Shown here: positions 22,612 through 26,935 of the stretch, in pieces
How positions within the stretch are numbered: position 1 is the stretch's first letter
Layout of the letters: the number at the start of each line of letters is the position of its first letter
Assembly: GCA_964016885.1 (NCBI GenBank)
Contig: OZ024740.1
Location: 322,648,001 to 322,712,000 of the forward strand
Direction: 5' to 3'
Length of the DNA: 64,000 nt
DNA from: Eledone cirrhosa
Lineage: Eukaryota
The notes under the pieces: generated by a model
What the model was told of the DNA's origin: nothing
Database searches by the model: none
Seen by the model: the letters and a program-made list of their open reading frames with translations, nothing else
Translations under genes and position numbers: made by a program

Positions 22612-23603
22612 ACAGAAATTGCAACTGCCGCGACAGAGGACGCTGCCCCCTTAGAGGATACTGCTTGACTGATAGGGTTATATATAGATGCACTATTACT
22701 AGCCACAATAGCGTTAAACATTATATAGGGGCCACCTCCGGCCCATTCAAAATTAGGTTTCGAACACATCTCCACTCTTTCACAAATAGAAAACTAAGGC
22801 ACTCCACCTCGCTCGCGGACTACATCACATCACTAAAGGACTTAAACATCAGCTTCTCCACGCACTGGGAGATTGTCGGCAGGGCTGCACCGTACAACTT
22901 CAAGAGGAAATGCGATCTTTGCCTCATGGAGCTCTACCACATCATAACTGCACCCCACGAGCTCATCAACAGCAGAGCTGAAACAGCGATAAGTTGTACA
23001 CATCGCTTAAACATATCCTTCTTCAGATGGGTTAAGGATGAAGAGTGAAATAGTACACTGGATCTCCCTGCAACAAGTCTTAACACCCCGGCGGGCAGGC
23101 GCTGCAAAATAACACCCAGGAAACAATCCTTGCATACCAGACCCAGCCTCAGACAAACGGATGCGGCAAAAAAAAAAAAAAAAAAAAAATTGTCCGGGAA
23201 AGACTGCCCTAACACCGGCCAGAGTTACCTCCCTTGACCTGCTGCAAAATCAAAACAAGATATTTTTGCGAGCAATGAACCTTGATATGGATTTAACCCC
23301 CAAAACTCTTTCCGAGCAATATAAGGAACACTTGTGATTATTTATGCCCTTGAGAAGCCTAACTGGGCGAAACGTACGTAGGTGATATTTTAAATAAACC
23401 TGTTTTAACGGTCTATTCTCCGATTTTTTACTTTCCTACGTGCTTACGCTCTGCTAACTCTCTAGCCCACTAAATATTAACACTTCGAATATTTAATACT
23501 GCCGACACTAGTATCGAGAACCTTTGGCATACGCTACTTGGCAAATAACTATATGTATCACCTATCCCCCCTTTTTTCTCTTTCTCGATACGTAAATACT
23601 ATA
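22612..23603 (+). repeat. 5' pseudo-LTR (~990 bp; duplicates the GIY-YIG end and 3' UTR)
   Basis: Near-identical to 25940-26935; both encode the peptide ending FFRWVKDEE*. Confidence 0.93.
23343..23388 (+). ncRNA. Minimal hammerhead ribozyme, U3-A8 core variant (pseudo-LTR copy 1)
   Basis: CC-UUGAGAA-GCCU AACU GGGC-GAAAC GUAC GUA-GG; palindromic helix III ACGUACGU; proximal helix I is short. Confidence 0.7.
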
Positions 23604-25939
23604 TTACCGTGCTCCTTTTGTAGAGCATCTCACCTTATTTGCCATTATGTTGGAGAACAACTCGTTACCCATGTCTCTCAAGTGTATCCCCTTACCCAGC
23701 AGAAAAAACCTACCTTAAACTGCTTATAGACGCTACTAATTCGTTTATACGGAGAGTCAGATGGAAGGCCTACCACCTGGATAAGAACACCCGTAACCTT
23801 CCTGAACCCAAAAAGAAGTATGGCTTCAAAACATACCGAAACCCACCGCACAACACCTTACTGGACTCCTTTGAAGAGGACCTGCTGAAAATGATCAAAA
23901 ACGTTAAGCTCAGAAAGAAACACCAATGCAGCAATCCATTCTTAACGTCCCTTGATACACTAATAACTAAGATCAAGAATGACCCGCACCTCTTCATCAC
24001 CTCCGACAAAACCAAAAAGCTGTACAAGATGGACGCGAGTGAGTATAAAAAATTCATCTATAAGGAATTACACTAGACTACAAAAAGACACCCTCTAGTA
24101 CCCTAAATGACATAAATAGAGTAGGGAAGGATATAGTCACCAGCTTAGAAATAGAAAAGTACACTAACCCATATGTCCCTCTGACGCCTAAATTCTCTCT
24201 TAAGGATCACAAATATGACTTTAATGAAAGCCCCTCTATTAGACTAATATGCCCCTCTACATCAGATATAGGTAAGATTAGTAAAGTGATCCTCGACAGA
24301 GTACTACTCGAGCTTAATAGAAAGGCTAAGGTCTGCCTCTGGGGCAACACCGACCAGGTCATAAAATGGTTCACCGAGTTGCCGGATAAAGCCACCCTGA
24401 AATTCATCCAGTTTGATATAGATAGCTACTACGCCTCTATCTCCCCCATACTCTTAAATAAGGCACTTATCTTAGCTAGATCTAACACTAGCCTCACTAA
24501 AAAAGAAATAGACATAATTCTAGCGGCACGTAGAACCATTATCCAGTTTGAAGGCTCCCACTGGACCAGAACTAACCGTCCTGATAACTTCGATGTCACG
24601 ATGGGGTCCAGTGACTCAGCGCAAGCAACTGACCTGGTCGGGATATACCTCCTACATAAGCTTAGGGAAGAAATACCGGCCCTACAAGGAGGTGTATATA
24701 GGGACGACGCCCTGTTTACCGTTAGGAACCATAGTCCCCGTAGGATAGAGAACCTTAACAAACATATACACAGGTTCTTTAAGTCATACGGCTTATCCGT
24801 AACTATGGACCTCAACCACAGGGTTGTCAACTTCCTGGACGTGACCCTGGAGTTGAGTACGGGCTTATACAAGCCATACCATAAGCCTGGAGAGTGCCTC
24901 TCTTATATTAATTATGCCTCCAACCACCCTAAGCAGACTCTCAACTCCATAGTCTATAGTATCTCACATAGAATCTCGAGGCTATCCGCCAATGAGGATA
25001 TCTTCAACCAAGCGGCTGATTACTACAATAGGGCCCTGATAAGCGCCGGCTTTAACCGAGGAATTTCCTACATCCCTAACGCTAGCTCTAGAAACCCTCC
25101 CTCATAAAACTAACGTTATAGTAAGCCATACCTATAACCGATCACGCGGCGACCTCGTTGAAGTCGGATATAATAGAATAGATAACCGCACCAAAGATCA
25201 CGTCCCCGGCGACGGTGAACACTGTAGATTACTCAAACTATTCCCCTATTACAAAACCAACAAAGGCGACGGCCTACTACCAACGCCTTCCAACCAACAT
25301 CTTCGTGTACATAAACATGGAAGAGGTAGAAAGAGTGCACCCGAGCATAAAGTGAAAGGGGCACCGAACGGGCGACTGCGCATTAACACACATAAGAGCG
25401 GTCACTTAGATGGAACCACCCGTAGCAAAAGTACAAGGACACGTAATCACCACCGTAACGTCCTATGGTTCCACCCCCCTACTCTCGGAGTGTGGCCTCC
25501 AACATACCCCGGATGTTCTTCGAAGCCTTAGAGAAGAACTTCCCGCCCAACCATAGGTATAGAAAAATTCTTAATAGGAACAATATAAAAATATCCTTCT
25601 CTACTACTCCTAAACTAGCAGACATCATAGGAACAACGAACCACAGTAAGATCACCAAGACACAGCACCTCGACACAGACGCACCTACACCTGACAATAA
25701 CTATATCGGCCTTAACAACTCCCTGGCAGCATCCAATAGTGTTGGCAACGGCATCCGCAGACGCAACCAGAATAACCGCGAAATGACTGGGGAACATGCA
25801 GAACATGACGTGCGGAATAACAATCGCACCACCCCGCGTGCTGTGGGTTGTAATTGTGCTAACGACAGCTGCGGTAGCGTAGGTAACAACGTAGGCAGCA
25901 ACAATGATAGCCTTACCGTAGGAAATAGACGGAACCGCG

Positions 25940-26935
25940 ACAGAAATTGCAACTGCCGCGACAGAGGACGCTGCCCCCTTAGAGGATACTGCTTGACTGA
26001 TAGGGTTATATATAGATGCACTATTACTAGCCACAATAGCGTTAAACATTATATAGGGGCCACCTCCGGCCCGTTCAAAATTAGGTTTCGAACACATCTC
26101 CACTCTTTCACAAATAGAAAACTAAGGCACTCCACCTCGCTCGCGGACTACATCACATCACTAAAGGACTTAAACATCAGCTTCTCCACGCACTGGGAGA
26201 TTGTTGGCAGGGCTGCACCGTACAACTTCAAGAGGAAATGCGATCTTTGCCTCATGGAGCTCTACCACATCATAACTGCACCCCACGAGCTCATCAACAG
26301 CAGAGCTGAAACAGCGATAAGTTGTACACATCGCTTAAACATATCCTTCTTCAGATGGGTTAAGGATGAAGAGTGAAATAGTACACTGGATCTCCCTGCA
26401 ACAAGTCTTAACACCCCGGCGGGCAGGCGCTGCAAAATAACACCCAGGAAACAATCCTTGCATACCAGACCCAGCCTCAGACAAACGGATGCGGCAAAAA
26501 AAAAAAAAAAAAAAAAAAAATTGTCCGGGAAAGACTGCCCTAACACCGGCCAGAGTTACCTCCCTTGACCTGCTGCAAAATCAAAACAAGATATTTTTGC
26601 GAGCAATGAACCTTGATGTGGATTTAACCCCAAAAACTCTTTCCGAGCAATATAAGGAACACTTGTGATTATTTATGCCCTTGAGAAGCCCAACTGGGCG
26701 AAACGTATGTAGGTGATATTTTAAATAAACATGTTTTAACGGTCTATTCTCCGATTTTTTACTTTCCTACGTGCTTACGCTCTGCTAACTCTCTAGCCCA
26801 CTAAATATTAACACTTCGAATATTTAATACTGCCGGCACTAGTATCGAGCACCTTTGGCATACGCTACTTGGCAAATAACTATATGTATCACCTATCCCC
26901 CCTTTTTTTCTCTTTCTCGATACGTAAATACTATA
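25940..26935 (+). repeat. 3' pseudo-LTR of PLE 2
   Basis: Direct repeat of 22612-23603. Confidence 0.93.
26674..26719 (+). ncRNA. Minimal hammerhead ribozyme, U3-A8 core variant (pseudo-LTR copy 2)
   Basis: CC-UUGAGAA-GCCC AACU GGGC-GAAAC GUAU GUA-GG. Confidence 0.7.

Follow-up and report, generated by a model that had tools for sequence, protein, structure and literature searches.

Does a Penelope-like element (PLE) whose two pseudo-long terminal repeats (pseudo-LTRs) each carry a hammerhead with an altered core use that motif to process its own RNA, and is the processed RNA what is copied into new insertions? The question is raised by a locus of Eledone cirrhosa, which we analysed in a window of 64,000 nucleotides (nt) from contig OZ024740.1 (forward strand). 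The window holds a PLE with Hydra-clade motifs, arranged as a partial tandem and set in (TA)n (Table 1). Both of its motifs have the form of minimal type I hammerheads with U3-A8 in place of C3-G8, and both lie where an earlier note, made from the sequence alone, had placed them. We conclude that this U3-A8 fold has very probably been kept by selection.

The 3-8 pair forms in the active conformation of hammerheads, and we use the established hammerhead numbering throughout. Each motif combines a Watson-Crick 3-8 pair with GAAA, NUH and G10.1-C11.1, and position H17, an A in both, recurs at a spacing of 3331 nt. The compensatory reading of the core offered by the earlier note is supported: among the 42 copies of the window's clade described below, N7 is G in 26, U in 15 and A in 1, and the register is fixed because N7 is the varying position. 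An alternative register, with C3, an inserted U and no N7, was ruled out, as it is the fifth base of UUGANAA that differs between subfamilies. An exact pattern with the palindromic helix III matched the 3.0-Gb genome 2103 times and its reversed control 0 times, so the motif is not a product of chance; the same pattern recast with C3-G8 had 0 matches in the genome. It had been anticipated that a standard search would miss such a motif, and an Rfam scan of positions 22000-28000 (E<=5) indeed returned no hammerhead family among its 85 matches.

Together with its loop, helix III makes up an 8-nt palindrome; in the 3' copy the palindrome is imperfect. The palindrome duplex has a free energy of -9.8 kcal/mol, and the pair present in the window still forms an 8-bp helix III duplex (-8.0). 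For each monomer the most stable fold is something other than a hammerhead (-7.8 and -8.8, against -3.6 and -6.0 for the hammerhead fold), as would be expected of dimer-type motifs. Proximal helix I was correctly described in the earlier note as having 2 bp; overlooked there was that in older subfamilies these are followed by a 1-nt bulge and then by C-G and G-C pairs. The differences between the two copies were likewise correctly assigned to helix II (C/T at 23360/26691) and loop III (23377/26708), but the preserved pairing in helix II does not serve as evidence, since any C-to-U change opposite G gives a wobble. Both C-to-T changes are rare (1 and 2 of 37 rows, which come from the 30 closest loci, some of them overlapping), and we give the two differences no evidential weight.

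To follow the core through the family while avoiding circularity, we retrieved copies by protein: 110 of the 150 matches to the endonuclease (EN) of a sister lineage, 20 hand-picked reverse transcriptase (RT) matches and one pattern match. EN sequence was present in 129 of these 131 copies, and 106 were kept after removal of 20 without an alignable motif region, 2 deleted through the core and 1 duplicate. The EN nucleotide tree divides them into the window's clade (42 copies; ultrafast bootstrap 99; divergence up to 28%) and the sister lineage (64 copies). Positions 3 and 8 in the window's clade are U-A in 40 copies, one of which has a 2-nt core deletion, with U-U and C-A in 1 each; the sister lineage has C-G in 56, U-G in 3, C-A and C-U in 2 each, and G-G in 1.

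Counting a change as inherited when it is common to at least 3 copies, we found none in the 16 core columns of the window's clade, against 148 in 300 EN columns (P ~4e-4 for zero at the EN rate). Changes confined to a single copy number 31 in the core, 103 in 65 flank columns and 430 in the EN columns, and are thus as frequent in the core as elsewhere. Because inherited changes are absent while single-copy changes are not, the core is under selection: it decays freely once inserted, yet is fixed along the transposing lineage. Random decay of the core across copies, for which the earlier note had proposed a check, is not what this lineage displays.

The stem branch of the clade records how the swap arose, as three pairs switch together on it: 3-8; helix I 2.1-1.1, from U-A (59/64 in the sister lineage) to C-G (37/42 in the clade); and the outer pair of loop III, from A/U (60/64) to G/C (38/42), with the palindrome retained. 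Among helices I to III, covariation was found at the 2.1-1.1 and loop III pairs. The family thereby supplies evolutionary evidence that, in a lineage that transposes, selection acts on both the 3-8 tertiary pair and the dimer palindrome.

Swaps of the same pair occur elsewhere. We sampled 78 Hydra-type loci from the best 80 of 435 metagenome relatives, some of them near-identical, with a scan that permitted any 3/8 pair. The best-scoring motif was C3-G8 at 63 loci, G3-C8 at 2 and U3-A8 at 1; at 12 loci, several of them short contigs, none was found, and at none of the 78 did a mismatched pair score best. In a quick RT tree, for which the length filter removed every RT row of the C3-G8 sister lineage, the three swapped loci fall on separate branches. 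Within the E. cirrhosa genome, a generic pattern matched U-A 3596 times, C-A 92, C-G 77 and U-G 33 (controls 39, 25, 16 and 13, respectively); motifs in which extra bases flank helix II are missed by this pattern, so that the counts are not totals. Because U3-A8 exceeds C3-G8 by about 47 to 1 within this one descriptor class, searches for CUGANGA would miss most such motifs. The helix III of the window's family appears in about 44 C-A and 9 U-G rows (about 2% and 0.4% of 2103), distributed across subfamilies.

U3-A8 motifs with different helices also occur in about five other repeat families of the genome. In two of them, recovered with queries that included the core, U3-A8 is present at 29 of 30 loci and at 17 of 30 (11 of the latter unparsed). 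One of the two has tandem units of about 320 nt and also a C3-G8 copy, and C3-A8 is seen at six places in one family. We found no ORF (open reading frame) linked to these families; the ENs near them, at four loci, lie beyond (TA)n or on the motif's far side, and at two of the four the ENs have a hammerhead-like motif of their own.

We turn now to the ends of insertions, which bear on the template. Among the 89 tail ends, 57 terminate within 8 nt, short of the junction hairpin, and the other 32 continue into the ORF; 55 of the 57 terminal ends are followed by at least 16 A/T in the next 20 nt, which fits insertion into (TA)n. The end point of insertions thus lies 224 nt 3' of the predicted cut. 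A survey of 5' ends took in 60 young copies, 40 of which extend to the ORF start: the whole upstream motif is retained in 15, while 1 begins inside the motif, 15 in the tail and 9 after the junction. None of the 40 begins at the predicted cut, and there is no pile-up there. Four 5' ends at 23401-23414 lie in an AT-rich stretch; as a cluster recognised post hoc, they were not counted as a signal. The earlier note had envisaged a 3331-nt unit RNA excised by the two cuts; its spacing holds, but as a linear template it is contradicted both by the 224 nt that integrated copies have 3' of the cut and by their passage across the upstream cut site. A linear, doubly cut RNA cannot give these ends, because its tail would be at its 5' end, and we regard it as ruled out as the template of full copies. 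The template is either re-ligated or uncut RNA.

Tandem insertions permit a further comparison, since 21 of 24 tandem pairs had enough overlap to be scored. Within an insertion the two repeats are 1.7% apart, whereas their distance to other copies is 2.9%, and private variants are common to both repeats in 12 of the 21 pairs. This similarity fits a circular template without proving one.

A short putative hairpin marks the upstream junction. In metagenome Hydra-type loci, GCUC-loop-GAGCAC stands upstream of the ORF in 50 of 64 cases and in 0 of 64 ORF controls (69 loci were given, of which 5 were too short; the arms are invariant by design of the search). It is absent from the downstream ends of insertions, and our literature search found no report of it. 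We consider it a candidate signal for the start of reverse transcription, for protein binding or for EN recognition.

How might these parts work together? The motif probably cleaves the element's own RNA. The fuller account that we favour, to which we give an even chance, is that a selected U3-A8 hammerhead self-cleaves after GUA as a dimer and that the RNA is re-joined into a 3.3-kb circular template. The two motifs would pair through the 8-nt helix III palindrome and so fold the active core, perhaps with help from the element's protein. Cuts at both motifs would free an RNA consisting of tail, junction, ORF and 3' untranslated region (UTR), the ligation of which would yield the circle. Reverse transcription would begin internally, just 5' of the junction hairpin, copy the 224-nt tail and cross the ligation site; by continuing for more than one round it would leave one unit plus a partial upstream repeat, the arrangement observed. 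That the circle is the main template we propose only tentatively, as slightly short of evenly balanced. A stricter form, which appears unlikely, would have Hydra-type PLEs transpose via an obligatory RNA circle, the clade-conserved hairpin marking the internal start of reverse transcription. Dimer cleavage and ligation would then be needed to put the ORF upstream of the hairpin, because the hairpin is present only at the upstream junction. If this were true, the U3-A8 lineage, with three switched pairs and thousands of copies, would together with the separate 3-8 swaps constitute a natural mutagenesis series.

A number of observations weigh against the favoured account. Helix I is weak in the youngest subfamily, with the G2.4-C1.5 pair gone in 9 of 42 copies, and minimal PLE hammerheads are reported to cleave poorly in vitro (PMC4209133). 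Of the 64 sister-lineage copies, 15 have C and 16 have A at U4, and 5 have U at A13, all as inherited subfamily traits; related lineages thus kept transposing with a core that is not strictly invariant. The flank has 65 inherited changes in 65 columns, a count inflated by alignment ends. Five of the 40 upstream repeats ran beyond the fetched edge, and full tandem donors may exist; the two repeats of an insertion are nearest neighbours in only 10 of the 21 pairs. For a PLE of Anolis, hammerhead mutants left insertion in vitro unaffected, the substrate was mainly uncleaved RNA, and RNA-seq showed no reads ending at the cut site (PMC11167929). As a separate matter, the U4C, U4A and A13U subfamilies of the sister lineage offer a natural test set for tolerated hammerhead variants.

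The Anolis results also speak for the main alternative, namely that the motif cleaves but that the insertion template is uncleaved read-through RNA from tandem donors, the cutting serving instead the 5' end of the messenger RNA, termination of read-through, turnover or late release of the ribonucleoprotein. We regard this as possible, if doubtful. Passage across the cut site fits it equally well, long upstream repeats exist, and shared private variants could come from unsampled donors. Linear copying, however, can only shorten the upstream repeat with each generation, and downstream ends lack the hairpin; a copy of one unit would then have no further offspring unless the family were supplied by full tandems.

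It is improbable, in our judgement, that the hammerhead-like fold persists because it serves the RT-EN protein in binding or dimerisation, with weak catalysis or none. The inherited changes at U4 and A13, the weak helix I and the poor activity of PLE motifs in vitro are what would be expected of such a structure, but the 3-8 pair, which is formed in the active conformation, switches only between Watson-Crick pairs, and viroids with a U4C variant remain infectious (PMC3088659). That the motif is a canonical hammerhead in decay, carried along as the family expanded, or that it matches by chance, is very improbable: C-to-T and G-to-A are common mutations and most pattern matches stem from one young expansion, but the core is fixed across a clade of considerable EN divergence, three compensatory pairs changed on one branch, and other repeat families with different helices carry the same core.

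The element's direct repeats (about 995 nt) differ in 13 of 997 columns (9 substitutions and 4 indel columns), and both of its outer ends adjoin (TA)n. The A-tract sits about 160 nt before the motif and is some 12-29 nt long among young copies. Compared with a natural intact copy, the window ORF has 54 substitutions and four frameshifting indels, near 23703, 24074, 25096 and 25474. The earlier note's excised unit was to hold the entire RT/GIY-YIG region, and in this copy it encodes no intact RT/EN. Open frames of 927-979 codons at 5 of 20 hand-picked loci indicate that intact copies exist in the genome. A look-up of sequencing runs listed 4 from a single study, their kind unstated and none identified as RNA. 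The protein of this lineage has 910 amino acids (aa), against about 705 in most homologs, owing to two long insertions, one of about 100 aa after the RT thumb and an Asn-rich one of about 80 aa before CxCx5C.

Table 1. Positions of the element and its parts in the window
Feature	Position	Strand	Remarks
Hammerhead motif 1	23343..23387	+	U3 23350, A8 23355; core U3-A9 23350-23356; helix II 23357-23368; GAA 23369-23371; palindromic helix III 23372-23379; predicted cut after 23380 (H17)
Hammerhead motif 2	26674..26718	+	U3 26681, A8 26686; predicted cut after 26711 (H17); helix III palindrome with one C-to-T
Junction hairpin	23609..23628	+	GCUC-loop-GAGC, just 3' of insertion end point; once in window
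Upstream partial repeat (pseudo-LTR)	22612..23604	+	5'-truncated; endonuclease end, 3' UTR, hammerhead, 224-nt tail
Downstream repeat (pseudo-LTR)	25940..26936	+	ends in (TA)n target
RT and C-terminal GIY-YIG ORF	23647..26376	+	Hydra motifs (RWK, DKT, CxCx5C, no CCHH); broken by indels
A-tract, 3' UTR	23168..23189	+	second copy 26496-26520
(TA)n-rich target, left flank	22216..22611		left limit approximate; right flank ~26937-27015

The translation of the window contains RVRWKA and SDKTK, which correspond to the RWK and DKT motifs and are conserved in the alignment of homologs, and CNCRDRGRC, which corresponds to the CxCx5C linker, with CDLC and CTH as the flanking CxxC and CxH. The EN has a single C between its GIY- and YIG-like motifs and no CCHH. 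A Pfam search with 3 fragments gave 0 matches, and the RT and EN domain calls therefore rest on motifs and homologs. A protein search yielded 145 relatives, very few of them named; most have about 700 aa and share 30-49% identity. In the quick RT tree the family occupies a long branch (2.18) beside unnamed motif-bearing relatives. Membership in the Naiads, our first guess, was ruled out, as Naiads have an N-terminal EN.

Other repeats share the window. On the minus strand at about 20400-22215, a second, distant and broken Hydra-type element adjoins the same (TA)n tract; it has a canonical C3-G8 motif (C3 at 20449) with a weak helix II. In the right (TA)n flank, a non-coding repeat at 27002-28100 is composed of 430-nt tandem units and a 228-nt inverted arm and carries canonical hammerhead motifs at 27364 and 27794; it resembles a repeat found at another genomic locus and looks like a non-autonomous PLE or a retrozyme. 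Farther away lie the frameshifted AP-endonuclease/RT ORFs of a non-LTR retrotransposon (41210-45201) and long low-complexity tandem repeats (33537-36824 and 12112-14608) that give rise to spurious open frames in several frames.

Among the closest known systems is the Hydra clade of Craig et al. 2021 (PMC8557442). As characterised there, Hydra elements resemble the window element in having a C-terminal GIY-YIG without CCHH, the RWK, DKT and CxCx5C motifs, (TA)n targets, a hammerhead near the 3' end, and partial-tandem and inverted arrangements. By its motifs, endonuclease layout and targets, set against that description, the element would belong to this clade. It departs from the published Hydra elements in its core, as all 26 Hydra rows of File S2 have CUGA..GA, and in its unit length (3.33 kb, against <3 kb). 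In that source these are descriptive traits and not a criterion of the clade, and the sister lineage has the canonical core. The same paper calls the role of PLE hammerheads unclear. Further background is given in PMC6765202, PMC2920678 and a retrozyme preprint (10.64898/2026.07.22.740005).

Anolis provides a further comparison, the Poseidon element PAc (PMC11167929). Like the window element it is a PLE with a hammerhead in its pseudo-LTR and a 3' end away from the cut; unlike it, PAc belongs to the Poseidon clade and has a C3-G8 core that overlaps the ORF start. Cleavage of the PAc hammerhead is described as protein-assisted and as partly rescued by a 3-8 double mutant, and its reverse transcription starts internally.

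The swap itself is not new, contrary to what the earlier note implied. Cervera and de la Pena 2014 (PMC4209133), who propose a circle model, report U3-A8 in the Cercyon PLEs of Schistosoma mansoni, with about 1,300 matches; these motifs resemble ours in the core swap, in their place in PLE pseudo-LTRs and in their predicted action as dimers. Cercyon is a different PLE group, and the U3-A8 origin is likely separate. The window's motif also differs in a helix II of 4 bp with no extra base before G10.1 and a helix III with a 4-nt palindromic loop, and a C3-G8 sister allows its switch to be located on a tree. Perreault et al. 2011 (PMC3088659) describe natural U3-A8 hammerheads, stated to be active in vitro, which the section on them does not tie to PLEs; they share the compensatory core, whereas the window's helices I and III are weak. 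Our literature search found no report of U3-A8 in Hydra elements, although Lunse et al. may describe U3-A8 PLE variants. What is new here is a lineage with Hydra-clade motifs that carries the swap.

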